Below, piece by piece: positions 23,113-55,397 of a stretch of 64,000 bases of DNA; position 1 is the stretch's first letter; the number at the start of each line of letters is the position of its first letter. This stretch comes from an uncultured Bacilli bacterium (GTDB lineage: Bacteria > Bacillota_I > Bacilli_A > RFN20 > CAG-449), in contig CALVJL010000006.1 in assembly GCA_944332075.1 (NCBI GenBank), forward strand, positions 30,862-94,861, read 5' to 3'. The position numbers and the translations under genes were made by a program. The notes below the pieces were generated by a model. That model did no database searches. It was not told the origin of the DNA and was given only the letters and a program-made list of their open reading frames with translations.

Positions 23113-23142
23113 AAACCAATCAACTATTTACATTTTTTATAA

Positions 23143-24489
23143 TTATCTAAATATAAATGTTGTTAAATAATATGGATAAGTAATTATTTCCCCAATGCAT
23201 CCAACGTTTTGCGATGTCAACTTAACTAATTTTTTTACATTATATTTTTCTTTATCTTTTAAAACGGTTTTAGCCGACCGAGTATTACCTTTGTTTGCTT
23301 TGACTTCAATAAGAGTTACTTCACCACAATATTTAGAAATAAAATCTATTTCTAAGCCACTATCTTTATGAAAATAATACATTTTTTTGCCTAGTTTACT
23401 AAAAGCATCGGCTACTATATTTTCATATATCGCTCCTTTAGCTAATGATAACTTATTATTAATTATTAAATCTGGTACATCATCTTCTAACATTGAAATA
23501 TACAATCCACTATCATTTATAAATATTTTATAAATGCCTTCATCAACAAAAGAATCAAAAGGCAATTCAAGTGACTTCAAATTATAGCATTTTGAAATTA
23601 ATCCATAATCTTCAAGCCAATCTATTGCATTTTCATATTCACGACTTTTAGCATTTTTAGCGATAACTGAGTACTGAAACTTTTGATTTTCTTTTGCTAA
23701 TTGGCGTGGAATTGAATTAAAAGTTGCTAAAATTTTGGTTTTTGCAAACTGATCAACTTTAATTTCATAATCATCATTTAAATGAGTTCCAAAATCAGCC
23801 TCGAACCCCATCAAAATTTCCTTTTGTTTTTTTCTTACTTGATTAAAATCATTAGTCTTTATGTACGTATCTACAACTTCAGGCATTCCACCGATACATA
23901 TATATTTGTTAAATAATTCCAACATTTTATTGTGAATATATATTGGAATTTGTTTTGTTTCTTTTATACATTTGATTAAGATATCTATTACTTGTTTTTG
24001 AACTCCATTGGCCCATAAAAACTCTTCAAAATCCATGGGTTTCATCTCTAAATATTCCTCAAACCCTACAGGAATACCTCTTGATGGATATTTTGTTATT
24101 CTATAATTTTTAATTCCAAGTAATGAACCAGTACATATAACATCATATCTACCATCTAATGCAAAATATTTTAAAGATGCCCTAGCGTTAGGACAATCTT
24201 GTAGTTCATCAAATATTAATACGGTTTTATTAGGAATAAATTTAATATCTTTATATTTTATAGTCAAAGCAAATGTTATTGAGTCTATATCAAAATCACC
24301 ATTAAATAATTCTTGCAAACTAACATCTTTTCTAAAATCCAATTTAACAACTGAATCATAATTTTCTTTGGCAAAAGTCTCTACGATTGTAGTTTTTCCA
24401 ATTTGTCTTAATCCTTGAATGATTAAAGGTTTATGATTTGGTTCATTTTTCCAATTTAACATTTCATTATATATTTTTCGTTTGAACAT
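23143..24489 (-). CDS. AAA-family ATPase with DUF4143-type C-terminal domain
   Basis: Walker A (GLRQIGKTT) and Walker B (VLIFDELQ), with the typical architecture of DUF4143 ATPases. Confidence 0.7.
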   Translation of the reverse strand: MFKRKIYNEMLNWKNEPNHKPLIIQGLRQIGKTTIVETFAKENYDSVVKLDFRKDVSLQELFNGDFDIDSITFALTIKYKDIKFIPNKTVLIFDELQDCPNARASLKYFALDGRYDVICTGSLLGIKNYRITKYPSRGIPVGFEEYLEMKPMDFEEFLWANGVQKQVIDILIKCIKETKQIPIYIHNKMLELFNKYICIGGMPEVVDTYIKTNDFNQVRKKQKEILMGFEADFGTHLNDDYEIKVDQFAKTKILATFNSIPRQLAKENQKFQYSVIAKNAKSREYENAIDWLEDYGLISKCYNLKSLELPFDSFVDEGIYKIFINDSGLYISMLEDDVPDLIINNKLSLAKGAIYENIVADAFSKLGKKMYYFHKDSGLEIDFISKYCGEVTLIEVKANKGNTRSAKTVLKDKEKYNVKKLVKLTSQNVGCIGEIITYPYYLTTFIFR

Positions 24490-24776
24490 AATTATTACCT
24501 GCTGATTATAGTTTACACCTTTTTATAGCCTTTATCAAACAGCATTAACACTTTTTTCTACCATATTCTATTATAGATTTACACTTTTTTCGAACTTATT
24601 TTATGGTTATCTTGCACTTTTGCCAAAATTACTATCTCAATATTTTGAATATTAAATTCTAAAAACTTTATTACTAATCGTTCAAACAGTTTATGAATTA
24701 ATAAAAAATGCAAAAATATTGATAGTTAAAAAACAAAAAATAATTTTCGACAATGATATTCAGTACTTATTCTAAT

Positions 24777-26111
24777 CTATTTATTCAGTGAAATAATTCT
24801 AAGTATATCTTCGCCATATAATTCAAATTTCTTTTCGGCAAATCCATTAATAGCAAGTAATTCTTCTTTATTTGAAGGAAGTTTTTGCACTAATTCATTT
24901 AACTGCTCATTATTAAAAATCATATAGGGTTTAATATTATTTTTAACAGCCATAGCATAACGATATGCTTTTAATTTTTGATAAACTTTGTTTCCTTCTA
25001 AAGCTTCTTTTTCTTCAACTTCTTTTTTTGAATGAGAGACAATTATATTAACAATATCTTGTCCATATAATTCAAATTGTTTTTCATTCAAAATTTTATA
25101 ATTAGATAACGTTTTAATATCTAAAGGTCTTTTTAAAATTAGTTGTTCAAGTTGATCATTGTTGAAAATATAATAAGGCTTATAATTTAATGCTTTTGAT
25201 TTGTTTGTTCGATATTCTTTTAAGCTCTCATACAAATCATCATTTTGAGGTACTTCAACTAGTACTTCTTCTTTTACTGTTTCTTGAACTTCATCAGATT
25301 TAAATATCGTTTTTTCTTCAATTTTTGTTTCCATTAATTTTAAATGTAGTTTGCTAACATAATCTGTTTCGCGTTCAACGATATGTTCTGATATGAATTC
25401 AACAACTTTTTCGAGCTGTTTCTTTTTCATATCAAAATCAGCATACATTTTATAGTATGTACTTAATTTATTTGCAATCTGATCTGTCTTAATAACTATG
25501 TCTTGAATTTCTTTAGGTGCATAGGCTTTTTTAATCATAGCTTTACTATTAGAGCAGCAAATCAATGATAAAACTGGCAATTCTCTAATAAGTTTATTTG
25601 ATACTAATAAATTTCTTAGCAAATCGCAATGTTTTTTATTTTGCATAACAGGCGAATCCATTCCCTCTTTTTTATAAACATTACCTTTTGCATCAATAAA
25701 TGATCTGACAAAATTTCCTTCACTGTCAATAGTGATATTGCCATTTAATTTTTTTGCTTCAATAACACAGATAAACTTAGGTGTAACAATTACAAAATCC
25801 ATTTGAGCTGTTACATCGTTATATTTTAAGCAAATATCATGAAAAACATATCCTGGTATGTCATAAATATTTTTTAATTCATAAGCAACTTTAGATTCAC
25901 CTTGCAATCCAATGTTAACTAAATTTAATTCTTTTAAAACAATTTCCTTTTGGTCATCACCGACTTTTAAAAGCAAATTCTCTAATTGTTCTTTTTGCTT
26001 ACAAGTTCCTTCTTCAAATGGTTTAATAAAAACCAATTTTTTTGTTTCATTATTTTCAAAAATAAAATTAAGTAAACCCATAACGCTTCTCCCCTTTGTA
26101 TTTACTTTCAC
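24777..26111 (-). CDS. NERD (nuclease-related domain) protein with two tandem C-terminal HRDC domains
   Basis: N-terminal NERD-like segment (GESKVAYELKN...DFVIVTPKFICVIEAKK). It is followed by two paralogous HRDC-like repeats (LYESLKEYRTNKSKALNYKPYYIFNNDQLEQL... and VYQKLKAYRYAMAVKNNIKPYMIFNNEQLNEL...). Confidence 0.6.
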   Translation of the reverse strand: MKVNTKGRSVMGLLNFIFENNETKKLVFIKPFEEGTCKQKEQLENLLLKVGDDQKEIVLKELNLVNIGLQGESKVAYELKNIYDIPGYVFHDICLKYNDVTAQMDFVIVTPKFICVIEAKKLNGNITIDSEGNFVRSFIDAKGNVYKKEGMDSPVMQNKKHCDLLRNLLVSNKLIRELPVLSLICCSNSKAMIKKAYAPKEIQDIVIKTDQIANKLSTYYKMYADFDMKKKQLEKVVEFISEHIVERETDYVSKLHLKLMETKIEEKTIFKSDEVQETVKEEVLVEVPQNDDLYESLKEYRTNKSKALNYKPYYIFNNDQLEQLILKRPLDIKTLSNYKILNEKQFELYGQDIVNIIVSHSKKEVEEKEALEGNKVYQKLKAYRYAMAVKNNIKPYMIFNNEQLNELVQKLPSNKEELLAINGFAEKKFELYGEDILRIISLNK

Positions 26112-26147
26112 TTAAAACTTTACATCATGTTCATTAATATTTTAAGT

Positions 26148-26744
26148 TTAATTCTTTCTTAATATTACATTAAGCCATTTTTCATTCCCTCTATTAGTTC
26201 TTACATCAAAACTTAGCTTAATATCTTCAATAATTAAATCTGTTCCTTCAACATATTTTTTTATGGAGTTTTCATCTAAATCAATATTATATCTTCCATT
26301 TCTAACGCCTTCAAAATTACCATACTTAAAAGAGCAGTACATTATGCCGTCTTTCTTTAACGCTACTGCACATTTTTCAAATGCATTAGATAATTTTTCT
26401 TTATTAATATGTAATAACGATGCACAAGCCCATATACCGTCAAATTTATCTTTAAACGTCATTTCATTAGCTTCTTGACAATATATGTTAGTAAATCCTT
26501 TTTCTTTTAATAAATCACAAAATTTTTCAACAGGATCAATACCGTATACTTCATAGCCTTTGGAAACAAAATACTCAAAATCACGTCCACTTCCAAAGCC
26601 TAAATCCAAAATTATCGCATTAGGTTTATTTAAATGTGATTCAAAAAACTGATACATCAAAGACATGTCACATTGATAAGTGCTATCGATAAATTCTTTG
26701 TAATGGTTTACGTAATATTCTTTAGTTTTATCCATATAAATCAC
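26148..26744 (-). CDS. small class I SAM-dependent methyltransferase
   Basis: Motif I LDLGFGSGRD. 198 aa, TehB/UbiE-like size. Confidence 0.65.
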   Translation of the reverse strand: MIYMDKTKEYYVNHYKEFIDSTYQCDMSLMYQFFESHLNKPNAIILDLGFGSGRDFEYFVSKGYEVYGIDPVEKFCDLLKEKGFTNIYCQEANEMTFKDKFDGIWACASLLHINKEKLSNAFEKCAVALKKDGIMYCSFKYGNFEGVRNGRYNIDLDENSIKKYVEGTDLIIEDIKLSFDVRTNRGNEKWLNVILRKN

Positions 26745-27725
26745 CTATTTAAAATCATATCTGCAGCTATTATAGAATTTATCAACATAATTATTCTCAA
26801 TTGCTTCTTCCATAGAAATTTTTAACTTTTCATCATTTAATAAATTAACCAGTTTTTTATTTCTCTCTTTTAGTCTTTCAATTACATCTTCTGAAGGAAC
26901 AATATTACTTTTTTTACTATTATTTGATTTAGTGGTTAATACTAAATTCCAAATATCATCAGAATACATAAAACTCCATGGGATAACATGGTCTACTGAT
27001 ATATCATCTGAAGCCAATTCTTTTCCGGTATAAAAATCAATAGGTTTATTGCCAGTGATTAAAATAAGAGACGAAATAAACTTTTTTAAATTATTTCTTC
27101 TAATTTCAGATTGACTGGCTCCTGCAACTTTTTTATTAATCTTAGGCGCGCTATTGTATTCTTCTAATAACTGAGCCCATTTATAGTTAAGAATTATTGT
27201 TAAAATATCTGCATAATCTATTAAATCTTTTGAATTATCTTTATTTATAAATATCTTATTATCTTTTAGATAATAGATATCACTCACTCTGCCATCTAAA
27301 TTTAAAAAGTATTTGATTGGATTTGCCTTTAGATTTACTCCTATTTTAGAAATACAAGCATCATATTCTTTTAATTTTTTCTTTCTGATTTCTGTTCTAG
27401 CTAAGTCAAACCAAATCGGATATGTAGATTCTGTTAATTTTTGATAAATAGATATTAGTTTTTTTACTTCTTCTAAAATGATAGCTTTATTTTTGCTAGC
27501 AGGTCCAGCTTGTTTAAGTTTGAAAAAATAATATTGATTCCAATAATATTTCAAAACATTCTCTGAAATATCATATAAATCAACGTAAACTTCATCATCA
27601 ACATCATGAAAAAGCTTGTTTTTTAAGCATTCAATGACACTTCTTCCAAAAGCGAGTTTATATGTTGTGACATTTTTCATTTTTTCAATGATATTTATCC
27701 ATTCATTTATGTATTTTGGAATCAT
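26745..27725 (-). CDS. HNH endonuclease-domain protein
   Basis: DHVIPWSF...NLVLTTKSNNSKKSN fits a His-Me finger (HNH) motif. Its stop abuts the start of the methyltransferase gene. Confidence 0.5.
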   Translation of the reverse strand: MIPKYINEWINIIEKMKNVTTYKLAFGRSVIECLKNKLFHDVDDEVYVDLYDISENVLKYYWNQYYFFKLKQAGPASKNKAIILEEVKKLISIYQKLTESTYPIWFDLARTEIRKKKLKEYDACISKIGVNLKANPIKYFLNLDGRVSDIYYLKDNKIFINKDNSKDLIDYADILTIILNYKWAQLLEEYNSAPKINKKVAGASQSEIRRNNLKKFISSLILITGNKPIDFYTGKELASDDISVDHVIPWSFMYSDDIWNLVLTTKSNNSKKSNIVPSEDVIERLKERNKKLVNLLNDEKLKISMEEAIENNYVDKFYNSCRYDFK

Positions 27726-27972
27726 AAATACCCCGTATTAAATATAATTATTTGTATAAATATTATATAACGAAGTATATTTTTTTGAAATATGGATGAT
27801 ATAAACGTGAGAAAATATATTAAAACATTTTAAAAATGTATAATTTAATTCTAATAAAAATTTTTAGATTTTTTATAAATATATGGAATGGAAGAAAAGG
27901 TTTTGTATTTGGTGATTTTCTTGTCAATATTTTTAAAATATCAGCTATTGCTCAATAACAAAAAAGTATTTT

Positions 27973-28704
27973 TTAATTATCTCCTTCATTTATTGTATTT
28001 TTATAAGCATTTATAAATTTATCTCGATAATTGATGCCATTGATTATAAAATCGAACTTATTTTCATTATGAAATTCACAAATAAGAATATCTAAAAGTT
28101 TTGCCGCTATCAAAATTAAAGAATGACTATAAACTATTGCATTATTAATATCAGAAGCAAGATTGATAAAACAAATAACTCCATGAGTCCATAGATTTAA
28201 TTCTTTTTTCCAACTTTGAATAGCGTCATCTTCTTGGATTTTAGACAATTTGATTAACGAGTAGATTCCATACCCTTCATCTAATGATTTTAACCAACCA
28301 TAGTCTAAAAAATTTAAAGGATTTTCTTTATTTGGATTAAACTTTCCATTATAATGCTTCCTTATTAATTTATTTTTATCATCATTATTTCTTATCTCAA
28401 ATCTAAACTTCTGATGTTCTATATAATCATCTAATAATTCTTTATGCATTTCTAAAATCTTAATAGTTGCAATTTGTTCAATGGCCATTCTAAGAATGAC
28501 ACAGGCTTGCGAAATTAACAAACCATTGCCAAGCAACAAACAAAAACTTTTTATAGAATTAAAAGACTCATAATAAAGACTGTAAAGATATTTATTTTTA
28601 TCAAAATATTTTGTAAAGATTATGTCTGGCATCTCATCACATAATTCAATCATATATTCCAAAAGTAGTTTGAATTTTTCAATTTGTAGTTCCTTGTCAT
28701 ACAT
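27973..28704 (-). CDS. hypothetical protein
   Basis: 243-aa ORF in the accessory island. No recognisable motif. Confidence 0.35.
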   Translation of the reverse strand: MYDKELQIEKFKLLLEYMIELCDEMPDIIFTKYFDKNKYLYSLYYESFNSIKSFCLLLGNGLLISQACVILRMAIEQIATIKILEMHKELLDDYIEHQKFRFEIRNNDDKNKLIRKHYNGKFNPNKENPLNFLDYGWLKSLDEGYGIYSLIKLSKIQEDDAIQSWKKELNLWTHGVICFINLASDINNAIVYSHSLILIAAKLLDILICEFHNENKFDFIINGINYRDKFINAYKNTINEGDN

Positions 28705-28982
28705 ATTTTTTTACCTTATTAAATCGTTATCTTATTTTTCCAATAATAGAAATATTCGGCTTATAATAATTATATGTTGTAGTTTGGTTTCACTTACTTG
28801 TTCTTTTAAGATATCGAAGAAAATTTAGAAAATCCAGTTGAAGAATTGATAATTTGGTAATTAAGTTACATAATTTTCATATTTTAGAACTTCTTGTGAA
28901 CATATTCTGATACAACCAATCAATATATTCTTATCTTTTTTATTATTTAAGTTATAAAGACTGTGCAACGATTAAATTTAAG

Positions 28983-30344
28983 CTATAGTCCTTTATATGA
29001 AATCATCCATTCGACCCATGCTTTTATAGTCGACGCTCTTCTACGAATTGTTGCTGGAGCAAGATTAATTTTCATATGCTCAATTTCATTAACAATGTAC
29101 TCTATATTAACATTTTTATTTTTAGATATAGCATCATTATAAACATCTGAAAATAATTTGTTTTCAATTAGTTGATTGTAGATATCTTCTTTGATTTTAT
29201 TTTCATCATCATAGATTGCAGTGATTCGTTCTGTATATTCTGGCAACTGATTGATGAATCTCAAATATTGTAATGCTTGCAAATAATAAAGAACTTGTCT
29301 CTCTGTTGTAAGATTCAGTTTTTCCATAATTTGTTTTTTATCTTTTAATAATTCGTTATCACAAAGCATAGCAAATTTAATAATTCTTTCCATGCTATTT
29401 GCTTGAGGAAGAATATTTTGCATACCCAAAATAATTACTTCACGTCCAGATTGTCTACCATCGCCATTTGAATTAATGCTTCTTAATGTAGACAATTTTT
29501 CAAAGAGATAAAATACTTTGTATTTAGGATCTTGATTAAACAAATTAATCACTTTTTCTGTTGCATTATTACTAATAATTACTGTAGCTCCTCGGTTTAT
29601 TGCTTTATCTAAGCTTTTCTTTAATTTTTCAAAATCTTCAAAAGTAAAACCTGACATTTGATATTTAGTAAAGCCATCGTCATCTTCATAATCATACGGA
29701 GGATCAGCATAAATAATATCTCCTCGCTCTGCTTTATCTATTGCTTTGTCATACGTTCCACACATTATGCAAATATTGTTTTGTTTATCCGAAAAATAAT
29801 TATGAATTTCTGTTAGATTATCTTTATCACAAATCAAGGGATTTTTATATCTTCCAATAGGTGTATTAAATTGTCCTTTACTATTAACTCTGTATAATCC
29901 GTTATAGCATGTTCTATTTAAAAAGATCATCCTAGCGGCCCGTTCTACATCAGTTTTGTTGGAAGGCCATCCATCATCACGATCATATTGTCTTACTTTG
30001 TAATAATAATTCTCGGCACCATCTTCATCTTCTGGATTATTTAACTTGGAATGATATTCTTGTTGATATTTAGCTAATAAATTAATTAAATCCTTATATG
30101 AATCACTTTTAATAACCGAATAAGCATTCATCAATTCGGAATTCAAATCATTGATAATAGCCTTTTGTGGATGTAAGTCAAAAAAGACGGCACCGCCGCC
30201 TAAAAATGGTTCAATGTATGTAAAGTCATTTGCTTTATCACCTTCATCATCGTTGTTAAATGACTTAGACGCTTCAATATATTCCTTAATTTTTGCTAAT
30301 ATTTGCCTCTTTCCACCAGCCCATTTTACAAATGGTTTCATCAA
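28983..30344 (-). CDS. Dam-family (alpha-class, D12) N6-adenine DNA methyltransferase with a roughly 150-aa C-terminal extension
   Basis: N-terminus KPFVKWAGGKRQ, motif I EPFLGGGAVFF, motif IV IIYADPPYD. At 453 aa it is far longer than the usual 270-300-aa Dam. Confidence 0.85.
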   Translation of the reverse strand: MMKPFVKWAGGKRQILAKIKEYIEASKSFNNDDEGDKANDFTYIEPFLGGGAVFFDLHPQKAIINDLNSELMNAYSVIKSDSYKDLINLLAKYQQEYHSKLNNPEDEDGAENYYYKVRQYDRDDGWPSNKTDVERAARMIFLNRTCYNGLYRVNSKGQFNTPIGRYKNPLICDKDNLTEIHNYFSDKQNNICIMCGTYDKAIDKAERGDIIYADPPYDYEDDDGFTKYQMSGFTFEDFEKLKKSLDKAINRGATVIISNNATEKVINLFNQDPKYKVFYLFEKLSTLRSINSNGDGRQSGREVIILGMQNILPQANSMERIIKFAMLCDNELLKDKKQIMEKLNLTTERQVLYYLQALQYLRFINQLPEYTERITAIYDDENKIKEDIYNQLIENKLFSDVYNDAISKNKNVNIEYIVNEIEHMKINLAPATIRRRASTIKAWVEWMISYKGL

Positions 30345-30370
30345 AATACCTCTTCGAAAAAATTATAATT

Positions 30371-31117
30371 CTATTTCTTTATAGTATTATAATATTCAAT
30401 CATCTTATCATAAACTAGTGTTTCTATATCTTTTTCTTCAATTACATCAAGAAATTTAACACTACCAATTCTAGAAACATATTTTGCAATACTTGGGTAA
30501 AAAGAAGCATTTTCAAATCCAATTTTTTCAACCGCTTTCTTTTCTCCTGATATAATTCCTCTAACCAGGTGCTTTTCTGATGAATAAACTCTCCAAGTTA
30601 AGTTTCTATATCTTTCAGGCAATTCAACAATCCACTTTGTGAGTTCAAATTTATCTTTTCTACTTTCATCGATAGTTAATGAAACTCTAAAAAAGCACCT
30701 GGAAAGAACACCAAACATTAAACCTCTTCTTATACCTTGTCCAAACATCCAGTGATCTCTAACTGTTGAAACACCTTTAATCTCCATCATCGATTTTGTA
30801 ACTTTATAAAATTTTTCAAAATATAGCCAAAGCCAAAACTTTTCATTAGTTATAATAAATGTAGGAAGATTCTTTAACGCATTATATAGAGTAACACTAT
30901 TTTGAAAATCTAATTTTTTATCTGAAGATTCTTTGTTTTCTTCAAGCACAAAATCTTCAATTTCATATTTTTTCTCAACAAATGGATAGTCTATAAATTC
31001 ATCTAATACCCATGAATTATCATCATTGTCTTTGATTTTATTAGCAATAACACCTAAGTTTCTTTTTAAATGTTCGTATGCTCTATCTGTCATCATTTTT
31101 ATATATATCTTACTCAT
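30371..31117 (-). CDS. hypothetical protein (operon partner of the Dam methyltransferase and GHKL ATPase)
   Basis: 248 aa with no recognised motif. It overlaps the upstream gene by 8 nt. Confidence 0.4.
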   Translation of the reverse strand: MSKIYIKMMTDRAYEHLKRNLGVIANKIKDNDDNSWVLDEFIDYPFVEKKYEIEDFVLEENKESSDKKLDFQNSVTLYNALKNLPTFIITNEKFWLWLYFEKFYKVTKSMMEIKGVSTVRDHWMFGQGIRRGLMFGVLSRCFFRVSLTIDESRKDKFELTKWIVELPERYRNLTWRVYSSEKHLVRGIISGEKKAVEKIGFENASFYPSIAKYVSRIGSVKFLDVIEEKDIETLVYDKMIEYYNTIKK

Positions 31118-32033
31118 TATCAGAATCCCCTTCTTTGTTGTTTTTTACAACATCTAAAATATTACATAGAGATGTTGCAAAAGGTTTTCCAAGTATTTCT
31201 TGTGCTATTTGAATTGGTGACCATTCAAGTATGTCATCTTTAGTTAATTCATGATTCTTTAATTGATTATATCGATATTTAATTGAATAAAACCATCCAT
31301 ATTGTGTACATATATCTTCAATATCACTAAATGTATCTAACTCAGTTAATTTTTTTATAGTTGTAAAAGCTTCTGTTAAAACTGGCACTAATAACATACT
31401 GAAAAACACTTCCTTAAAGCCAACAGAATTATATACAACTTTATAATTTTGATATTCATTTCTTGATAGGTAGATGTTAATTTTTTTGCCACCTTCATAT
31501 TTAACTTCATACATTCCATCTTCTTCAATATTATTATCAAAAGTAATATTAAAAATTGATTTTGCAACATTTTCTTCAGTCTCTAAGTGTTCGAATTTGG
31601 CAATAAAGCCATCATTGATAGCTATTAAATCATACTTATCGATTTCAAACTCCATTCCCTTGTATTCATCGCTGAATTCGTCTGAAAATAAAATAAAGTT
31701 TTCTTTAGCATATGCAAAGGAAGAAATTTCTACTTTACCATCAAAATCGTTTTTATCAAGCAGTATATTATTTCCATCTTCAGTGGATAATTCGTATGTT
31801 CTTCTAAAAACTGTGTACGAACATTCAATGACACATTTAACACCTATTAAACCATTTCTAAATAAATCTAAAATATAGTTACTATCTGTTTTAAATTTTA
31901 TATTTCTTAACAAAATACCATTTTTAGAATCAACACGTTCAAAAGATAATTCAAATATCTTATTAAAATATGATGAATTGATAATATTGTGATTGAGCAC
32001 AGGATATGGGAATAGCTTACTTCTGACTTGCAT
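31110..32033 (-). CDS. hypothetical protein (operon partner of the Dam methyltransferase and GHKL ATPase)
   Basis: 307 aa with no recognised motif. It overlaps the GHKL gene by 17 nt. Confidence 0.4.
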   Translation of the reverse strand: MQVRSKLFPYPVLNHNIINSSYFNKIFELSFERVDSKNGILLRNIKFKTDSNYILDLFRNGLIGVKCVIECSYTVFRRTYELSTEDGNNILLDKNDFDGKVEISSFAYAKENFILFSDEFSDEYKGMEFEIDKYDLIAINDGFIAKFEHLETEENVAKSIFNITFDNNIEEDGMYEVKYEGGKKINIYLSRNEYQNYKVVYNSVGFKEVFFSMLLVPVLTEAFTTIKKLTELDTFSDIEDICTQYGWFYSIKYRYNQLKNHELTKDDILEWSPIQIAQEILGKPFATSLCNILDVVKNNKEGDSDNE

Positions 32034-33966
32034 AAATTCTTACCTCACTTGCAAAATAATCATTTTGATTAGTTTTAACATCAAGATTAATTCTCTGCCC
32101 GTCTATAATATGAAATGGGCCATAATCTTTATTACTTATTGAAGAAATAGGTACTCCGTTACATGTCATACTTAATATTTCAATATTTTCTTTATTAGTT
32201 ATTTCATCTTGAATCATTATTAAATTCAAATAACAATTTTCATACGATTTTGGTGCAATAAAACTAATTCTGTACTTTCCTGATTTTTTATCTAAAGCTA
32301 TTACTTTATAACGAATTCCAGCAAGGTTTACTTTTTGCATCACTATATTGTCGCCATCTTTAACTCCGGAAGTTTCGTCTCCTTCGCCATATCCGCCACC
32401 ACTAGTATCATTGTGTCCTTCCGGATGTAAAGTATCTTCACCTTCCTCTATAGAACTTCCAACATCTGGTCGTACACCTTCGCCATCATCTTGTTCAATA
32501 TAAGCATTTCTTTCAATTTGTTTAACTTCTTTAAATGGCGAAACTTCAATTTCTTCTAAACTATTATTTTGCTTAATAGCATTATTTGTTCCTTCAATAT
32601 CAGAGACGTCTGGTAAAAATTCCCCAGCCCCATATGGATCAATTGTATTAGTATCGTCTGTCTTAAAACATTCTAAAACATATTTATCAATTTGAGATTT
32701 AATATCAGAAATGATAAAAGCCATTTCATCACGTTCAGGTTTTGGTAATCTCTTTGGTTCCCAACTATTGTGTTGTGGATTTTCAATATTTCTTAATTTT
32801 TTACCTAATTGATCTTCTCCAATAATCAATAATGCTGACACATTGAAGTTCCTTGCCAATGGATAATCAAAAATCTTCATGTATGGATATCTAATAATTG
32901 AACATTTATGAGTTGCAATCCATTTATCATCTTCTGATAACACCATAACATATAGCTCTGCCTTACCATAAGGTGTATCAATATCAAAAGTTTTAACATT
33001 ATCCATGTCATTAGATAAAATCTTATATTGTGATAATAAATAAGGTTTTTTCTTATAGTTGACAAATGTTTGATTGTTAATAACATCCAAAAGTGTATCT
33101 TTTTTTATTTCTATATTGGAAATCTTAATAATTAAATTATTTTTAAATATGCTTACCATAAATGATTCGAGTACACTATTTAATATTTCAATTGACCAAT
33201 CATTTTCTTTATTTAGACCCAATATAAAAATATCTGTGCCGTATTGTTCTGATCTTCTAAAAAAATCACAGTCCAAAGAGCATAAATCAGTCAAAGGATC
33301 ATTTATTTCATTTCTTGTGTAATAGCCTTTTCCTTGAGTATAATCTCTGTTTGGATTTTCAACATCATCATCACAATAACCAGAAATTAAGTCGGCTACA
33401 CCAACTGAACCTTTTTCATTATCTTTTGTTATAGTTGAGTAAAAAATCATTGATAACTTAGATAGCAAAAATGCGGCATTTTTACCAACACCTTTTGAGC
33501 CACCAGCATTATCATTAGATTTATCTGAAACGCCTGTAGATCTTGTTAATGCCAAAAAGTTGTTATTTTGTCCATCATTAACTCTACTAATCCCAGTTAA
33601 TCCCGTTGTATTAAAATCACTAATTCTTAAACACTCAATTTTAGGGCAATTAAGATAATTAAGTATCTTGTTGTATTCCTGATAGAATTTTGGTTGAGAG
33701 TCTTTCCAATATTCCATGCATCTTCTAATTGCAGTTTTATAACCACCAATATCTGGAATATCATTTGGATTAATCTTAAACAATTTAAATTCTACAGTCA
33801 CTGGTTCTTCATCAGAAAATCTAGCATCTATTGAATTTTGTATAATTTCACGACCGAAGTTACCAAAAGGATTCTTTTTAAATGTTTCTGTATCACCAGA
33901 AGTCATTCCAGTTCTCTCACCATGATTACTAGGAGCAAATCTCCATTTTAAATTATCTTTTTCCAT
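32017..33966 (-). CDS. GHKL-superfamily ATPase, MORC/Hsp90/MutL-like
   Basis: N-terminal Bergerat-fold motif I ETFKKNPFGNFGREIIQNSIDA, near-identical in pattern to the Hsp90 ETF...REL(I/V)SNASDA motif. Glycine-rich SKGVGKNAAF follows. The remaining roughly 400 aa are uncharacterised. Confidence 0.6.
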   Translation of the reverse strand: MEKDNLKWRFAPSNHGERTGMTSGDTETFKKNPFGNFGREIIQNSIDARFSDEEPVTVEFKLFKINPNDIPDIGGYKTAIRRCMEYWKDSQPKFYQEYNKILNYLNCPKIECLRISDFNTTGLTGISRVNDGQNNNFLALTRSTGVSDKSNDNAGGSKGVGKNAAFLLSKLSMIFYSTITKDNEKGSVGVADLISGYCDDDVENPNRDYTQGKGYYTRNEINDPLTDLCSLDCDFFRRSEQYGTDIFILGLNKENDWSIEILNSVLESFMVSIFKNNLIIKISNIEIKKDTLLDVINNQTFVNYKKKPYLLSQYKILSNDMDNVKTFDIDTPYGKAELYVMVLSEDDKWIATHKCSIIRYPYMKIFDYPLARNFNVSALLIIGEDQLGKKLRNIENPQHNSWEPKRLPKPERDEMAFIISDIKSQIDKYVLECFKTDDTNTIDPYGAGEFLPDVSDIEGTNNAIKQNNSLEEIEVSPFKEVKQIERNAYIEQDDGEGVRPDVGSSIEEGEDTLHPEGHNDTSGGGYGEGDETSGVKDGDNIVMQKVNLAGIRYKVIALDKKSGKYRISFIAPKSYENCYLNLIMIQDEITNKENIEILSMTCNGVPISSISNKDYGPFHIIDGQRINLDVKTNQNDYFASEVRIYASQK

Positions 33967-33980
33967 AATTTATCACCTTT

Positions 33981-34202
33981 CTATAATTCAATTTTCTTAT
34001 TTTTCTTTTCATTATTTTTTAAAAGTATTTTTTTGCTTTTTTTCAACTCTTCCTCGAGTTCTTTAAACATATTTTCTATTTGACTATCTGAATATTCATA
34101 GAAAGATGTGTTTGTAAGATTTGTCAGTTGTTTTATCAAAGCAATGATTTTTGAGACCCTATTTTCTGAAATACGTTTAAAATTAGATTTTTTACTTTCC
34201 AT
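33981..34202 (-). CDS. small charged/coiled-coil protein, hypothetical
   Basis: 73 aa, K/E-rich. First gene of the apparent operon. Confidence 0.3.
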   Translation of the reverse strand: MESKKSNFKRISENRVSKIIALIKQLTNLTNTSFYEYSDSQIENMFKELEEELKKSKKILLKNNEKKNKKIEL

Positions 34203-34307
34203 TTGTTATACCTCAATTAGATTATAATATTGGAAAATATAAGAAATCAATAATAGATTGATAATATTTTGGTAATATTTTTAAATTATTTTAAATTTAC
34301 ATATGTT

Positions 34308-35051
34308 TTATTTTAATCTTTGCCTATAAAAATCATCAAGCAAACTCAAAGAAATACGATAATTTTTCAAATTTTTTGGTTTATTTATTAATATACGTTT
34401 CAATTGTTCAATAATTTCATCGCGCATCTTTGAAAAAATATAATAATCATCTAAGACAAGTATATTGTCATATCCTTTCTTTATATATAATTTTGGACAT
34501 ATTTTTTGATTAATTGCTATTAACTTTTGCGCAATAAAATTTATTTCCTCTTGTGAGTATGAATGCGTAAAACTTACGTACTCTTTAAAATCTTTTATTG
34601 TCTTTTCTTCATAGTAATCAAGTACTTCTCTTTTTTCACCTTTAGGCATCCGATGAATATACAATTCACATGTAGAAAGATCGACATTCCATTCTTTAAG
34701 CAAAAGCTGAATTGTCCAAAGCGAATGAATCGATGTATGATTAACATTTATAAAAAGTCCATAATCAAACTCCTTGTAATTACTCTTTTGCACTTCAGAA
34801 AAAACATCTTGTCTTCCCCAATCATTTTTTATATTCAAAAGTTCTTCTTTTGATTTAGGTGACAGCTTATTTAAGTATTTTGCCAAGGAATATATCATGT
34901 TGTTATAGGATCCAACTTTATGATAGTAAGTCCCAACTTTTATTGAATAAGGTGAAGAAAATTCAAAGCCAAACTCTCTAGTAGATAAGTCAACTTTATA
35001 GACTCTTTTACTGCCAATATATTTTATTTTGTATTTTTCTTCTATTGTCAT
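34308..35051 (-). CDS. hypothetical protein
   Basis: 247-aa ORF. No motif recognised. Confidence 0.35.
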   Translation of the reverse strand: MTIEEKYKIKYIGSKRVYKVDLSTREFGFEFSSPYSIKVGTYYHKVGSYNNMIYSLAKYLNKLSPKSKEELLNIKNDWGRQDVFSEVQKSNYKEFDYGLFINVNHTSIHSLWTIQLLLKEWNVDLSTCELYIHRMPKGEKREVLDYYEEKTIKDFKEYVSFTHSYSQEEINFIAQKLIAINQKICPKLYIKKGYDNILVLDDYYIFSKMRDEIIEQLKRILINKPKNLKNYRISLSLLDDFYRQRLK

Positions 35052-35457
35052 AATTTTCCCACTTTTCTTTTAATTATCACTTTTTAATAATGATATTTAC
35101 CCCACTATTGATTATTACTTAAATTCATTTTACCACTGCTATATCATATATCAACATGAGTTTCTTATATATTTTATTTATAAGCATTTAGTTTTAGACC
35201 ACCAAATTTACACATAGATTGATGCATTTTTTACTATACATTTTTTCAAAATGTGTGAATTTTCTAATAATCAAGCGCTGTAAATATTGATATAAAAATG
35301 CAGTTTTACGGTGAAAATGTCAGTTTTCTACAATTATTTCAACAAGTACAATATATTTATATTATAGAACATTGAAATTTGTTTTTGCTGAAGTTTAAAT
35401 TTATTATTAAAAATTATTATCAACAATATATGTACATAGAAGATATCAAAATTTATA

Positions 35458-36162
35458 TTAATTGCTTTGCCTTTTTAATTTATTTGCACATAGCACTTTC
35501 ATTACCGATTTATCATCAAATATCATATCGTTTGTATTATTTAAGCAATCAATATAATCATTCTTTATTTCTTCATATAATTCTTGATCAAATAGTTGAC
35601 AAAAAGAATTTGGTTTCCCATCTTCAATAACATCAAAAATAACAGCTAAATTACCATCGTCATCATAACAAAGATAAGAATCTTCTAGTTTTGGTAAATT
35701 ATTTTCTTTTGCATACTCTTCATACTGTTTTGCCATAATATATCTATAAATTGAAGCTATACGATGATCTAAATTATTCTCTAAAGCCACAACTTTTTCT
35801 CTAGCTAAAATTGTTGTAGTAGCACCTGTTTTTATATATAAAGATGTATCTATGTCTTTATCATTATAGTAAAAATTATAGACATCACTTAAAGATCCAA
35901 ATTGAACTATAAAGTGTTTCTTTTGATTTATATATTTTAATGGATAAGGTACAAAATGGATATGTCCGCAATAAGGGCATTTAAAAATAAACAATTCATC
36001 AAAGATAAACTTTTTTCTTAAATCATAGTCTTTATCCCCATCAATTAAATCATACACTTTAACAAAGAAGTTTCTCTTACATTCCTTACATGTCATCATT
36101 TTTATTTTACTAATCGACATTTTATTCTCCTTCATTATTTTTACATCTTTTTTTAAAGTCAT
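35458..36162 (-). CDS. zinc-ribbon protein (CxxC...CxxC), hypothetical
   Basis: CKECKRNF...CPYCGH near the N-terminus. Its 5' end overlaps the vWA gene by 41 nt. Confidence 0.45.
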   Translation of the reverse strand: MTLKKDVKIMKENKMSISKIKMMTCKECKRNFFVKVYDLIDGDKDYDLRKKFIFDELFIFKCPYCGHIHFVPYPLKYINQKKHFIVQFGSLSDVYNFYYNDKDIDTSLYIKTGATTTILAREKVVALENNLDHRIASIYRYIMAKQYEEYAKENNLPKLEDSYLCYDDDGNLAVIFDVIEDGKPNSFCQLFDQELYEEIKNDYIDCLNNTNDMIFDDKSVMKVLCANKLKRQSN

Positions 36163-36781
36163 TATCTATTGTTTTTCTCCAAGCACTTGAGAGCTTTTTA
36201 TCAATTCTTAAAGAATCAATAGCAAAGCCTAATGCACAATAATTTAATGAAACCCCGCTGCTATCATTTTTATAATTGACCGCTTGTTTTTTATCAATTC
36301 CTAATCTAGATGCTTCTTCTTCTAAATCAATGTTTGCTCCGATAAAAATAAACTCATAACCATTTTTCTCTTTTGATTCTGATATCATCTTTTTAATAGT
36401 GGGGTAATCATATTCTTTTGAAGAATTTTCCATTCCGTCTGTAACAATCATGAATAATGTCTTACTTGGACGTTCTTTCTCTGTTAATGAGCTCTGCACA
36501 TTTTTAATATGATTAATTGTTTCGCCAATGGCATCTAGCAAGGCTGTGCAGCCAGATACTCGGTATTCTTTATTTGTTAATTCTTTTATATCTTTGATAT
36601 TGACTCTATCATCAATAACATTTATCGAATCATTAAAAAGTATAGTCGAAACAATAGTATCTAAATTATTTTTTTGCTTTTCAATTAAAGAATTAAAACC
36701 GTTAATCGTTTCTTTTTCTAGCCCAGCCATTGATCCGCTTTTATCAATGATAAAAACTAATTCAGTTAAATTTTCGTTCAT
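36122..36781 (-). CDS. von Willebrand factor type A (vWA) domain protein
   Basis: MIDAS motif DKSGSM (DxSxS), with the conserved T (TALLDAIG) and D (VTDGMEN). Confidence 0.75.
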   Translation of the reverse strand: MNENLTELVFIIDKSGSMAGLEKETINGFNSLIEKQKNNLDTIVSTILFNDSINVIDDRVNIKDIKELTNKEYRVSGCTALLDAIGETINHIKNVQSSLTEKERPSKTLFMIVTDGMENSSKEYDYPTIKKMISESKEKNGYEFIFIGANIDLEEEASRLGIDKKQAVNYKNDSSGVSLNYCALGFAIDSLRIDKKLSSAWRKTIDNDFKKRCKNNEGE

Positions 36782-36954
36782 GATTTACTCCTTTTAGATA
36801 GTAAAACTATCTATTATGATATTAGTTAAAATCAGACTGAATTTGGTAACTTTGAAAACGACTTTGATATAAGTTAAATCATTATTAAAACTAACTTTTT
36901 CATAAAAAATGCAACCAGACCTAAATCTGATTGCTTATAAAAAAATAACTCTTT

Positions 36955-37437
36955 TTATTTAAAAATTCTTAACTTTAATTTATCTAACACGATATTTAAA
37001 TCCATCATGCTGTATTCTTTATTCTCAATAAAATATTCAACTACTAATTCCCTTTTAATTGATGGCGATAAAGTGTATCCAGCCATATTTAACAAATTTA
37101 AAGTTTCATCAATGTTTAGCTTTAAACCAATACATAACCTAATCGCTGTATCTTTATCAGGGTGATAATTCTCATCACTTCTAATTTTAGAAAATGTTTG
37201 TTTAGTTACTCCGCAACGTTTATAAACATCTGAATCTTTATATCCTTTTTTATCGATAAGTGCAAATAAGGCCTCTTGCCAGGTCTTAGATTTTCTTGCC
37301 AAAATTCTTTTCTTTAATTCTTCAAATTCCTCAAAATCACATCCATTGACTGGCATTTCATTTTTATGATTGCGATGGACAAAATTCTCATCTATATATT
37401 GTTTTATTTGTAATAATTTTTTGTCAGAGATGCTCAT
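36955..37437 (-). CDS. helix-turn-helix DNA-binding protein
   Basis: GVTKQTFSKIRSDENYHPDKDTAIRLCIGLKL matches an HTH_3-like helix-turn-helix. Confidence 0.45.
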   Translation of the reverse strand: MSISDKKLLQIKQYIDENFVHRNHKNEMPVNGCDFEEFEELKKRILARKSKTWQEALFALIDKKGYKDSDVYKRCGVTKQTFSKIRSDENYHPDKDTAIRLCIGLKLNIDETLNLLNMAGYTLSPSIKRELVVEYFIENKEYSMMDLNIVLDKLKLRIFK

Positions 37438-37551
37438 ATTATATTCTCCCCTTATTCATTATAAATATAATTACTTTATATTTCTCATATAAATTATAAT
37501 CAAAGAAATACAAAAATATTGTAAGATTTTTGATTAATTCTTGTATTACTA

Positions 37552-38115
37552 TTAAAAATTATCACCTAAATCTTGATAATTAAAATCTCTATTTTTCACA
37601 TTTTTTGAATAACGTGCTTCAAAAGGATTTACATAAAATTCTGTATGAAAATCAATATTCAATTTTTCTAGCAAACTTTCAAGATTAATCAGTAATTTCG
37701 TAAATTCTAAATATGATATTTTTCGATTAAATATATCATCATATATACTTATTAATTCTTTTAATGCTTCATCATCTTTATCATTGTTATACTTTTCATG
37801 CATAAAAATAGCCTCTTTTAATGAATAATATTTATCTTCAATCTCATCAAACTCAATAAATAATGTATTTATTAAATAAGTTGGAATTAATAATTCAAAT
37901 AGATATTTACAAAGATCTTCAATAGACTCTGAGTGAATCCAATCTTCAACAAATGGTGAACACATAAATGGTGGAATATTCATTACATCTATCGTATAAA
38001 AAACCATAATACTATTTTCATTTATTTTCACATGAGCATTTTTATCTATTAAATCTAAACTTTCCATATATCGCCTTTCTTTATTAACTAATAAGCAAAC
38101 CGATAAGAGAAACAC
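37552..38115 (-). CDS. hypothetical protein; the annotated GTG start lies inside an inverted repeat, so the real start is probably the internal ATG
   Basis: 187-aa ORF. MESLDL... begins 16 codons in and follows an aaagaaagg RBS. Confidence 0.3.
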   Translation of the reverse strand: MFLLSVCLLVNKERRYMESLDLIDKNAHVKINENSIMVFYTIDVMNIPPFMCSPFVEDWIHSESIEDLCKYLFELLIPTYLINTLFIEFDEIEDKYYSLKEAIFMHEKYNNDKDDEALKELISIYDDIFNRKISYLEFTKLLINLESLLEKLNIDFHTEFYVNPFEARYSKNVKNRDFNYQDLGDNF

Positions 38116-38998
38116 TCGATTATGACTTGTAACAATAGGGAAGAAGGAAAAAACATGTTTCTCTTATCGATTTACAAATGAATTATATAAAACAAAAGAA
38201 TTAGATTGGTCACCATCAAAGCGACTTCATCTAATTCTTTTAAAATATTAGTATGACATTTAAATATATCATAACTTCTATATGCATATCGAATGTTTAT
38301 AAAGAAGAACTATTTTGGGCAAGTTTAATAGTAAATCCTACAATATTTTCACCAAGCTTCAGGCATTTACCATTAAAAATATCACCAATTTCTAAAATAT
38401 GTTTTTTATTATCATAAAATCTATTGCTCAAAGACTGTTTTCCATTCATTTTCTAGTTCATTTTGATTTTTATATTTTTTACTATAACCCCTTATATTTT
38501 GAGGTAACAAAATAATATTTGTCTTTTGACACGATTATCGATGCGCACCATTTCTCGTTTTCATCAAGAGAAAGCATATTGTCTATCATAATGACATTAG
38601 AAATCATGTTTGTTTATGCACAATTTATGTATTAAGTATAGATTCTACGCACGATTTTTGTCTCTTTTAGCACCGATTACAAGGTTATGGTTTATATCTG
38701 TATAACCAAGAAACGATTGTAATTAAGCATAAAATCATCTTTCTCACATTTTATGAGCGAATAAATACGTTTTTATCACATTTTATGAGCTAATTAAGAT
38801 AAAAATTTATTTTACTAATAAGATAACCATGTATTTATATACTTTAACCATACAAAATAATTACAAGTAAGACCTACACATAAAAAATTTATAAAATTTT
38901 TATGATTATTGATCATATAAGCTTTACCACTAGTATAAACATAAAACTTCATCATATTTTTGATATTTCTTCTTTCTTTGAAACCATATTGAAAAATA

Positions 38999-40357
38999 CT
39001 ATTTTTTAGAAAGTAGTACTACCGTCTCAACATGGAATGTCTGAGGGAACATATCCACAGGTGTGACACTCTTAATTTCATAATAATCTTTTAAATATTT
39101 TAAATCTCTAGCTAAAGTTGCAGGATCACAAGAGACATAAACAATCTTCTTAGGTGATGTTTTAATTAAGCAGTTAAGGAAAGTCTCTGTCGATCCTTTT
39201 CTAGGTGGATCCATAATAACTACATCATAATTAATATTATTTCTCTGCTGATTAACAATAAATTCACCCGCGTCACCTTCATAGAAATAAGCATTTTCAA
39301 TATTATTATTTTTCGCATTCTTAATCGCATCTTGAACCGCGGAAGGTTCAATTTCTACTCCATGAACAAACTTAGCCTTTTTACTAGCTATTAAAGAAAT
39401 CGTTCCAATTCCGCAATAGGCGTCAAGGAGTAAATCATCCTTACTAATTGAAGCTGCTTCAATAGCTAAATTATATAATTTTTCTGTTTGAACAGGATTA
39501 ACCTGATAAAAAGACTTAGGTGAGATTTTAAATAAGATACCATTTAAACTATCTTTAATAAATCCTGGTCCTTTTAAGATTCTTTCCTTTTCACCTAAAA
39601 TAACATTCGTGTCGCGAGAATTAATATTTTGGGTGATAGTCGTTATCTCTGGATGCAATTTTTTTAATTCTTTAATAAAATCATTTCTTCCAGGGAAAGC
39701 ATCTACTGTAGTTACCAATGTCACCATGATTTCTTCAAAATAATGAGAAGGTCTAATTAAGACATGTCTAAAGATACCTGTTCTTTTATCTTCATCATAT
39801 GGTTTTAATTTAAACTTTTTAATTAATAAGCGAATATCTTTAAGAATCTTTTCCGCGCGTTCATCTTCAATATAACAGTTTTCAACCGGGACGATATCAT
39901 GGCTTTTTTCTTTATAAAATCCTGAGACGATTTTACCTTTTAACATCTTTAAAGGTACTTGAACTTTATTACGGTATTTATAAGGATCATCCATTCCAAC
40001 CGTCATATTGACGTTAATGTCCTTAAGCCCTCCAATTCTTGTCAAAGCATCGTGAACTTTCTTTCTTTTATATTCAAGCTGGCCTTGATAAGAAAGATGC
40101 ATCAACGCGCAGCCTCCGCATTTTTCAAAACTTGGGCAAAGAGGAACAACCCTTTTATCTGATGATTTTTCTAAAGAAACTACTTTACCAAAGAAAGTAT
40201 CTTTCTTTTCATAAGTTATTTCTACTATTGCTCTTTCGCCAGGTAAAAGGTTATCAACAAACCCGATTTTTTTATTATAAGAAACGACTCCCTTGCCGTC
40301 GAAAGAGAGATCATAACAATCCATTGATACTTGTAATTTATTCATCATTGCCTCCAA
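38999..40357 (-). CDS. rlmD: 23S rRNA (uracil-C5)-methyltransferase RlmD/RumA family
   Basis: N-terminal TRAM domain, a 4Fe-4S Cys cluster (CPSFEKCGGCALMH), a SAM-binding motif (LDAYCGIGTISL) and a C-terminal catalytic Cys region. Confidence 0.85.
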   Translation of the reverse strand: MEAMMNKLQVSMDCYDLSFDGKGVVSYNKKIGFVDNLLPGERAIVEITYEKKDTFFGKVVSLEKSSDKRVVPLCPSFEKCGGCALMHLSYQGQLEYKRKKVHDALTRIGGLKDINVNMTVGMDDPYKYRNKVQVPLKMLKGKIVSGFYKEKSHDIVPVENCYIEDERAEKILKDIRLLIKKFKLKPYDEDKRTGIFRHVLIRPSHYFEEIMVTLVTTVDAFPGRNDFIKELKKLHPEITTITQNINSRDTNVILGEKERILKGPGFIKDSLNGILFKISPKSFYQVNPVQTEKLYNLAIEAASISKDDLLLDAYCGIGTISLIASKKAKFVHGVEIEPSAVQDAIKNAKNNNIENAYFYEGDAGEFIVNQQRNNINYDVVIMDPPRKGSTETFLNCLIKTSPKKIVYVSCDPATLARDLKYLKDYYEIKSVTPVDMFPQTFHVETVVLLSKK

Positions 40358-55226: not shown

Positions 55227-55231
55227 AAAAA

Positions 55232-55318
55232 TAAAACCACCGCACAGACAATGTTTGCTTAAGGCTGCTACATTCCTGTCCTGACCTGGTTCACATCATT
55301 GAATCGCGATGGCATTAA
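55232..55318 (-). ncRNA. ffs: signal recognition particle RNA (small 4.5S type)
   Basis: Minus-strand sequence ...GAACCAGGUCAGGACAGGAAUGUAGCAGCCUUAAGCAA... matches the conserved SRP RNA domain IV core (E. coli ACCAGGUCAGGUCCGGAAGGAAGCAGCCAAGGCAG). The flanking arms pair (CCAUCGCG with CGUGCGGUGG, CAAUG with CAUUG) into a closing helix. Ends are approximate. Confidence 0.65.
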
Positions 55319-55397
55319 TATCATAAACAAAGACTGATCAAATAACAATTATTTTTAATTTCATTTTGTTATAATAATAGCGATGTGAGGTAAAAAT

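Follow-up and report, generated by a model that had tools for sequence, protein, structure and literature searches.

The closest catalogued relative of the locus described here is PDC-M33, one of 145 phage defense candidates found by guilt-by-embedding and defined as a three-gene cassette (CAS_00129, FAM_02818>>FAM_02838>>FAM_01881), which was placed in PADLOC with the other PDC systems for later functional study, only the HEC systems having been tested (Payne et al., 2024, bioRxiv 10.1101/2024.01.29.577857). The wider theme is older. GHKL-type paraMORC ATPases in restriction-modification (R-M) neighborhoods were predicted by Iyer, Abhiman and Aravind, who proposed a MutL-like looping model for the paraMORCs of R-M systems, considered that such systems were possibly recruited to repair in non-R-M contexts, and described a group, paraMORC2, whose distribution is Gram-positive and whose members share, C-terminal to the GHKL domain, a strongly conserved ExxxH motif (Iyer et al., 2008, PMC2292703). 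Fusions of paraMORC and HEPN domains have been proposed as analogues of PrrC (PMC3710099). The only experimentally validated GHKL-based defense that we found in the literature is VcSduA, a type I-D Shedu protein in which a paraMORC3-type GHKL ATPase is fused to a DUF4263 nuclease and in which mutation of motif I abolishes defense (PMC12137116). In this study, we analyzed a stretch of 64,000 nucleotides (nt) from an uncultured Bacilli bacterium (contig CALVJL010000006.1 of assembly GCA_944332075.1), the whole of which we call the window, and within it an operon encoding a small protein of 73 amino acids (aa), a 649-aa GHKL-type ATPase (protein A), two partner proteins (B, 307 aa; C, 248 aa) and a 453-aa Dam-class DNA methyltransferase (MTase). 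Related loci that were compared with the window carry L-numbers (L001 etc.).

The operon is built around the catalogued core. Protein A matches the PADLOC model PDC-M33A (E 2.8e-138, residues 6–646 on model positions 3–625 of 627), B and C match PDC-M33B (E 8.8e-51) and PDC-M33C (E 9.2e-36) over their full length, and C also belongs to the Pfam family DUF6339 (E 1.4e-34). A preliminary description of the locus, made from the sequence alone, had presented the five genes as an undescribed system unless they corresponded to a catalogued one; for the core they do, since PDC-M33 is catalogued and the association of GHKL ATPases with R-M systems has been discussed since 2008 (Iyer et al., 2008). What we did not find described is the six-gene architecture with its ultra-conserved small subunit and its modular DNA-binding accessory protein, the use of interchangeable orphan methylases, the transfer of a restriction endonuclease (REase) domain onto the methylase, and the lack of a nuclease fold in B and C. 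We found no paper that mentions PDC-M33, DUF6339, DUF7226, DUF6996 or DUF6997. The five minus-strand genes of the preliminary description, with their coordinates and spacings, were reproduced on recomputation: from the 73-aa gene to the methylase, 14 nt separate the first two genes, the next two pairs overlap by 17 and 8 nt, and 26 nt separate the last pair. A metagenome scaffold in the European Nucleotide Archive (ENA) that encodes an identical 649-aa protein has the same genes in the same order by an independent gene call, which starts the methylase at the ATG (452 aa) so that the gap to the DUF6339 gene is 29 nt rather than 26. The extent given in that description was too short, as a sixth conserved gene (34308–35051) lies upstream; it had also missed that the small protein is the most conserved component and that the extension of the methylase is derived from a restriction enzyme.

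Gene order is well preserved across distant hosts. A genome scan yielded 21 loci (Christensenella, Coprobacillus, Erysipelotrichaceae, Anaeroplasmataceae, Mycoplasmopsis adleri, a contig labeled Phocaeicola, and metagenome-assembled genomes of Bacilli and Clostridia) and a metagenome scan 80 more. Distant copies reside on plasmids of Ligilactobacillus salivarius, Priestia and Lactococcus and in a temperate [Clostridium] innocuum phage, beside the phage integrase, and only nine viral contigs carry a copy. About 100 loci, spread over Clostridia, Bacilli, Mollicutes, plasmids and a temperate phage, preserve the order small protein-A-B-C, and, contig ends permitting, A, B and C are contiguous (in 49 of the 50 loci with sufficient flanking sequence, hereafter well-flanked loci). 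This order bears out the single operon that had been proposed, and the operon lies in a low-GC island with other defense-type genes.

The methylase is part of this pattern. In 40 of the 50 well-flanked loci an MTase gene is found no more than 4 kb from the core, and in two more just beyond that distance; the D12 (25), C5 (13) and other N6 (8) classes are represented. The density of MTase genes within 4 kb of the core exceeds that in the distal parts of the same loci 4.8-fold (66 observed against 13.6 expected), and of 27 D12 MTases that follow C on the same strand, 24 are spaced −17 to +26 nt from it; the adjacency is therefore not due to chance, and the co-conservation of the ATPase and its partners with the methyltransferase, on which the preliminary description had staked its case, is upheld. 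The class of the MTase, and sometimes its strand, differs between clades: a convergent C5 MTase directly follows C in L084, L091, L093, L098, L101 and L106, and in several C5 loci no neighbor of the size of a restriction enzyme was seen in the gene maps. Since most of the adjacent MTases are orphans, the "R" function would most obviously fall to the core. Other genes of defense type also adjoin the core. In L048 (7644–9656) a PDC-M49A ATPase (E 3.8e-173) and in L080 (11533–14070) a DrmD-like SNF2 helicase (E 6.5e-90) come directly after it, and in L019 (5492–9633), from a distant clade, an Eco57I-like N6 methylase, a C5 methylase and a 482-aa HNH endonuclease stand directly upstream of the small gene, making this one of the few loci with a recognizable nuclease in the same gene string.

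The methylase of the window is itself a composite. Its D12/Dam domain matches PF02086 (E 2.8e-48, 165.3 bits against a cutoff of 22) and TIGR00571 (228.8 bits against a cutoff of 114.85), and the translation has FxGxG ahead of DPPY, which confirms the proposed Dam-family N6-adenine methyltransferase; it is also the only protein with a match in PHROGs. The C-terminal extension is the Pfam domain DUF7226 (PF23871, E 3.2e-15), and the PADLOC model REase_II (PDLC03513) matches it at model positions 274–422 of 426. DUF7226 occurs near the core in three configurations. In 20 loci (all those in which A is at least 40% identical to that of the window, and L017) it is fused to a Dam MTase directly after C; in seven it is a separate open reading frame (ORF) of 148–160 aa after a plain Dam MTase of about 290 aa, some of these solo ORFs possibly being cut by contig ends; and in eight it forms the C-terminus of a full-length Type II REase of 423–440 aa, which consists of DUF6996, DUF6997 and DUF7226 in Pfam, matches REase_II (E 2.9e-124) and adjoins a plain Dam MTase. 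The N-terminal part of the REase is thus missing in 27 of the 35 DUF7226-bearing loci. The pair of Dam MTase and REase is also found alone, without A, B and C, on many plasmids.

When full-length REases were searched against the window by tblastn, their sole match was at 28998–29504, inside the MTase gene, and the N-terminal part had no match anywhere in the 64 kb. Because only the DUF7226 part matches, the extended Dam methylase is a methylase joined to the C-terminal tail of what was once its restriction partner, whose N-terminal and presumably catalytic part is absent from the window; a cognate REase with a catalytic domain, the mark of a Type II R-M system, was not found there. DUF7226 is intact in all three configurations, free of frameshifts, at 19–48% identity to the domain of the window, which argues for selection on it. 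In a plasmid of Crinalium epipsammum (L111, NC_019734, 519–6459), an operon runs from a Dam methylase through a serine protease and EAD1 to a MoxR ATPase, and DUF7226 forms the C-terminus of its last gene. This suggests that DUF7226 is a portable domain that joins Dam-type methylases to differing sets of effectors.

Protein A is likely to belong to the GHKL ATPases, judging by its motifs. The string ETF...GREIIQNSIDA, on which the preliminary description had based this assignment, was confirmed, and across 48 relatives with 26–43% identity the Bergerat motifs are invariant and in order (E40-x3-N44-x2-D47; D117..T120.G122; G156-S-x-G159-x-G161-K162; G243-T-D). The assignment therefore stands as far as motifs I to IV go, while a match at a curated threshold is lacking: the 649-aa protein itself has none in Pfam, NCBIfam or the sequences of the PDB (the last searched also with two family profiles), and HATPase_c_3, the sole Pfam family reached by several of its relatives, was reached by six of the 48 with a best E of 7.2e-4. 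Profile alignment with hhalign placed REIIQNSIDA on KELVENSLDA of E. coli MutL (motif I; probability 2.4%, not significant) and GGSKGVGKNAAF on GQFGVGFYSAF of HtpG (motif III, the ATP-lid; probability 0.7%, not significant). R359 and E395-x3-H399 are likewise invariant among the 48 diverse relatives; the latter fits the ExxxH described for paraMORC2 and, as the distribution also matches the published description, A is possibly a paraMORC2 protein. The MORC-specific motif GhXhhpXXRhl of the S5 domain was not seen in the lists of conserved columns of A, no formal search for it having been made. Neither DUF4263 nor any nuclease was matched by A in Pfam or PADLOC. The family is large, with 4331 cluster representatives at 50% identity (E <= 1e-3), 1490 of them at E <= 1e-30, and comes mostly from gut and rumen Firmicutes and from Mollicutes, plasmids of lactic acid bacteria being represented too.

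The 73-aa protein is the most conserved component of the system, keeping 31–69% identity where A drops to about 28%. It is encoded in 19 of 22 genome-scan loci (the window counted) and in 39 of the 50 well-flanked loci. Residues F8, R10, E13, R15, N28, N31 and Y35 are invariant, the C-terminus reads (K/R)-F-x-L, and no family match was found in Pfam, PADLOC, NCBIfam or PHROG, nor any match in the PDB. Protein B, like the small protein, has no family in Pfam or NCBIfam. B is predicted to fold into an N-terminal beta-sandwich and a C-terminal helical domain, and the model of C is compact and mostly alpha-helical; sequence and profile searches of the PDB with both gave nothing meaningful, no solved structural relative of C was found, and a BFVD search with it gave nothing. 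The only columns at least 95% conserved are Y10, P11, S159, L219, W247 and Q278 in B (93 sequences) and N73, W95 and D224 in C (85 sequences).

A cryptic nuclease of the PD-(D/E)xK, HNH or PLD type, which the preliminary description had thought B or C might conceal, was rejected, for the confident models and the conservation show neither such a fold nor a catalytic constellation. An HEPN RNase was considered for C on account of R176-x6-H183 and of the published paraMORC-HEPN fusions, and was also rejected: H183 is not conserved in the family, no match to an HEPN fold was obtained, and the Rx6H is limited to a close clade and lost across the wider family. Because so few residues reach 95% conservation and Rx6H is not retained, B and C look like structural or adaptor subunits. 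The earlier view that neither a helicase nor a canonical nuclease is encoded by the five genes holds: A and the MTase alone are recognizable as enzymes of the system, and a nuclease is not identifiable in the parts examined.

The sixth gene encodes a 247-aa protein that is the N-terminal-domain-only form of a modular protein that we call c4. A tblastn search located its homologues upstream of the core in 10 of the 21 loci of the genome scan, and its protein cluster is present in 16 of 22 loci. Elsewhere c4 is either about 475 aa long, with the N-domain of the window followed by a C-domain of about 215 aa, or 780–1185 aa long, with Sigma70_r4 helix-turn-helix (HTH) modules or RNA-polymerase-alpha-CTD/HhH modules joined to the same C-domain, and its gene may also stand between the small gene and A or after C. 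The C-domain, whose conserved motifs are limited to FxRPxIS and P..WNKYLL, is present in 27 of the 50 well-flanked loci and nowhere in the window; the form with the N-domain only was seen in the window, L001, L005 and L063. No match to the 247-aa protein was found in Pfam, PADLOC, NCBIfam, PHROG or the PDB, and a PDB search with the C-domain also gave nothing meaningful. In L031 (740–5032) a c4-family ORF of 1430 aa has its c4 domains preceded by PHP and DNA polymerase III alpha domains, which could be a genuine fusion or an artefact of ORF calling.

Table 1. Positions in the window of the genes, domains and other features discussed in the text.
Feature	Position	Strand	Basis or remark
73-aa small basic protein	33981-34202	minus	ORF; first gene of the core
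649-aa GHKL-type (paraMORC-like) ATPase A, PDC-M33A	32017-33966	minus	PADLOC and motifs
307-aa protein B, PDC-M33B	31110-32033	minus	PADLOC and model
248-aa DUF6339 protein C, PDC-M33C	30371-31117	minus	PADLOC, Pfam and model
453-aa methyltransferase ORF	28983-30344	minus	TTG start, ATG directly after (30341-30344)
D12/Dam alpha-class N6-adenine DNA methyltransferase domain of the 453-aa protein	29415-30344	minus	PF02086, TIGR00571
DUF7226 domain fused to the methyltransferase	28998-29387	minus	PF23871 and PADLOC REase_II
247-aa accessory protein upstream of the core	34308-35051	minus	Conserved sixth gene
Promoter-like site upstream of the 247-aa gene	35127-35154	minus	TTGATA-16-TAAAAT with TG; consensus match only
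Promoter-like site upstream of the 73-aa gene	34221-34250	minus	TTGATT-18-TATAAT; consensus match only
243-aa ORF directly downstream of the methylase	27973-28704	minus	
326-aa protein with Cas9-like HNH_4 domain	26745-27725	minus	
198-aa class-I S-adenosylmethionine (SAM) methyltransferase, abutting the HNH_4 gene	26148-26744	minus	Weak mad2-like PADLOC match
444-aa protein, NERD nuclease-related domain followed by two HRDC domains	24777-26111	minus	RecQ/DpdF-like C-terminus
448-aa AAA_14 and DUF4143 ATPase	23143-24489	minus	Left edge of the low-GC island
VWA-domain (219 aa) and CpXC (234 aa) genes, which overlap, and the gene for the HTH_26 protein (160 aa) that precedes them	35458-36781 and 36955-37437	minus	Upstream of the system
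Bacterial small signal recognition particle (SRP) RNA	55223-55320	minus	Rfam RF00169, 57.8 bits

The operon sits inside a low-GC stretch of about 15 kb (approximately 23000–39000) with about 25% GC (23–29%) against about 33% in its flanks (30–37%), lying between a glycosyltransferase gene and a gene for an rRNA/tRNA U5-methyltransferase. A tRNA, an integrase and a flanking repeat were all looked for at its borders and none was detected. The window carries a small SRP RNA and is therefore chromosomal. Besides the operon, the island holds the NERD-HRDC, HNH_4, AAA_14/DUF4143 and VWA/CpXC genes listed in Table 1; the HNH_4 and SAM methyltransferase genes may be a separate two-gene module, and the VWA/CpXC genes, which are preceded by an HTH_26 protein (160 aa), are also on the identical ENA scaffold. 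The 243-aa ORF matches nothing in Pfam, PADLOC, NCBIfam or PHROGs and has no homologue in the related loci. This ORF and the HNH_4, SAM-methyltransferase and NERD genes were rejected as parts of the system, none of them being kept beside the core elsewhere. The two promoter-like sites are candidates only, since the number of sites found in a promoter and terminator scan of the region was not above shuffled expectation. The observed/expected ratio of GATC is 0.71 in the window and 0.66 in the island, a descriptive figure that is uninformative on the specificity of the methylase.

We tentatively favor the reading that the locus is a six-gene, methylation-gated, R-M-like defense module driven by a MutL/MORC-like ATPase and possibly free of a nuclease. 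The Dam-class methyltransferase would mark the DNA of the host, and the fused DUF7226, taken from the C-terminus of the methylase's former restriction partner, would provide recognition of the site or a tether to the core. On unmarked DNA the GHKL ATPase would dimerize upon ATP binding, as MutL and MORC do, and A together with B, C and the small protein would clamp or loop that DNA and block its use. The restricting step could be non-degradative, as in BREX, or could proceed through an unrecognized active site such as the invariant E395-x3-H399 of A. Our data show which genes are present and in what order, their co-conservation, the identities of the domains, the shuffling of DUF7226 and the lack of nuclease folds or motifs in B and C; a function in defense, the use of methylation to tell self from non-self, a clamp driven by ATP and the part played by DUF7226 are inferred from them. 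R-M-like logic had been the proposal of the preliminary description, and it is still the best-supported one because of the enrichment of MTases near the core, their operonic coupling to it, their orphan state, the swapping of their classes and the selection on DUF7226; the invariant ATPase motifs, the precedent of VcSduA, the mobile distribution and the defense-type genes of the island support it as well. A bolder version, which strikes us as rather improbable, would make this a nuclease-free, restriction-like immunity in which a MORC-like GHKL clamp and three proteins of new fold sense missing methylation via DUF7226 and silence or entrap invader DNA, as a prokaryotic counterpart, and possible ancestor, of eukaryotic MORC silencing.

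Several observations weigh against the R-M-like reading. As a nuclease was not identified in the parts that were tested, it posits "restriction" without a known effector. The swappable MTase classes argue against a specific protein-protein interface between MTase and core, and in about 12% of the well-flanked loci (L012, L052, L073, L082, L087 and L096) no MTase was detected in the vicinity. In L024, L044, L048, L050 and L068-71 the core has a full conventional Type II R-M pair beside it, an arrangement that would equally be expected of a module simply nested in R-M systems. Because the loci are related by descent, our counts overstate how independent they are; the GHKL membership of A is a fold assignment from motifs that no curated-threshold match backs; and no experimental test of PDC-M33 was found in the literature. 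Some of these points would suit a guard. PrrC guards type I R-M systems, and PARIS responds to Ocr. In the same manner, the small protein, A, B and C could be an abortive-infection-type system triggered by an attack on the R-M or methylation machinery, for instance by anti-restriction proteins, with the methylase fusion as the monitored bait or decoy. Such a role would agree with the discovery of PDC-M33 through its embedding in known defense systems, with the complete R-M systems adjoining the core (in the loci just named and in L023) and with a core in which no nuclease was found; mixed MTase and R-M types and opposite-strand layouts are easier to reconcile with sensing of a general perturbation than with one interface, an REase tail kept without its N-terminal part would suit a decoy, and the paraMORC-HEPN fusions, as proposed PrrC analogues (PMC3710099), offer a precedent. 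Even so, we hold a guard to be unlikely on the whole, as a restriction partner that could be guarded is missing for most of the associated MTases, searches with A, B, C and the small protein revealed no toxic effector domain (HEPN, nuclease, TIR or pore-former), and a direct guard would be expected to co-evolve with a single R-M family.

The methylases could also be bystanders. If the core were independent and had a trigger of its own, the neighboring methylases would be orphans or decaying R-M remnants gathered in the same islands, in keeping with a PADLOC definition that includes no MTase, with the loci that have no MTase nearby, and with the Priestia plasmid, where the core is followed by an oppositely oriented, self-sufficient Sau3AI-type R-M system. 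Decayed copies point the same way: in L004 (12842–13703) a C shortened to 121 aa runs into what is left of the methylase tail, and L015 (9998–10942) has A cut down to 314 aa and no B or C. We judge this quite unlikely in view of the 4.8-fold MTase density near the core, the tight coupling of MTase and C, the retention of the fusion in 20 loci, where its two domains are intact though low in identity, and the recurrence of a convergent C5 MTase directly after C in several distinct loci. It is very unlikely that the locus serves something other than immunity, that is, MutL-like repair, epigenetic regulation or the maintenance of a mobile element by means of Dam-type methylation, after the manner of MutL-MutH-Dam. 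The pairing of a GHKL ATPase with a Dam-family methylase, the MutH/Sau3AI-family endonuclease adjacent in Priestia, the core without a nuclease and the recruitment to repair raised by Iyer et al. (2008) would all be accommodated, but the system is distributed sporadically and moves laterally (plasmids, the end of a prophage beside an integrase, a low-GC island), the neighbors include defense genes (PDC-M49, DrmD-like helicase, R-M, NERD, HNH), the MTase class is interchangeable and there is no MutS-like partner.

The family is abundant (4331 representatives) yet without an assigned function. Our analysis provides a testable architecture of six genes, with an interchangeable orphan methylase and an adaptor domain derived from a restriction enzyme, and the mechanism is narrowed because neither of the two core unknowns, B and C, is a recognizable nuclease. 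If true, the clamp would be a second example, after BREX, of non-degradative restriction, and it would give experimental access to bacterial MORC-type ATPases that read epigenetic marks, as predicted in 2008. If the clamp model fails, the locus is still a clean model of how R-M systems are rebuilt by domain shuffling.

Compared with systems that are already known, the resemblance to multi-gene, methylase-containing systems such as BREX, DISARM and Type III R-M is one of logic only. In these the methylase is thought to provide both self-marking and target recognition; BREX has no known nuclease, and DISARM swaps N6 and C5 methylases between its classes 1 and 2. In a PADLOC scan of all proteins of the window, matches in the operon were limited to the PDC-M33 and MTase models, and the operon has no homologue of PglZ, BrxC, PglX, DrmA/B, MzaB-E, DUF4263 or Res, which sets it apart from BREX, DISARM, Mza, Shedu and Type III systems. 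With MutL-MutH-Dam it shares a GHKL ATPase and Dam-family methylation, and in Priestia a MutH/Sau3AI-family endonuclease nearby, but it lacks MutS, lies in a mobile island and resembles MutL at the level of motifs only. VcSduA is likewise an anti-phage protein that depends on a GHKL ATPase and supports the idea of an ATPase gating an effector; it unites the ATPase and a PD-(D/E)xK Shedu nuclease in one polypeptide, however, and is not linked to a methylase, whereas A has no DUF4263. Like the paraMORC neighborhoods, the operon combines a GHKL ATPase having intact ATP-binding motifs with a DNA methylase; the published neighborhoods contain SF-II helicases, Vsr, RE-fold nucleases or HNH, whereas the conserved partners in the window are three proteins without known fold relatives and neither a helicase nor a nuclease. 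The methylase is of the same family as that of the Type II R-M systems composed of Dam and DUF6996-DUF6997-DUF7226 and bears the DUF7226 of their REase, without its N-terminal domains. The nearest relative is PDC-M33, whose three proteins A, B and C are matched at full length, contiguously and in the same A>>B>>C order; it is catalogued without the 73-aa gene, the modular upstream gene or a methyltransferase, and the window has all three.

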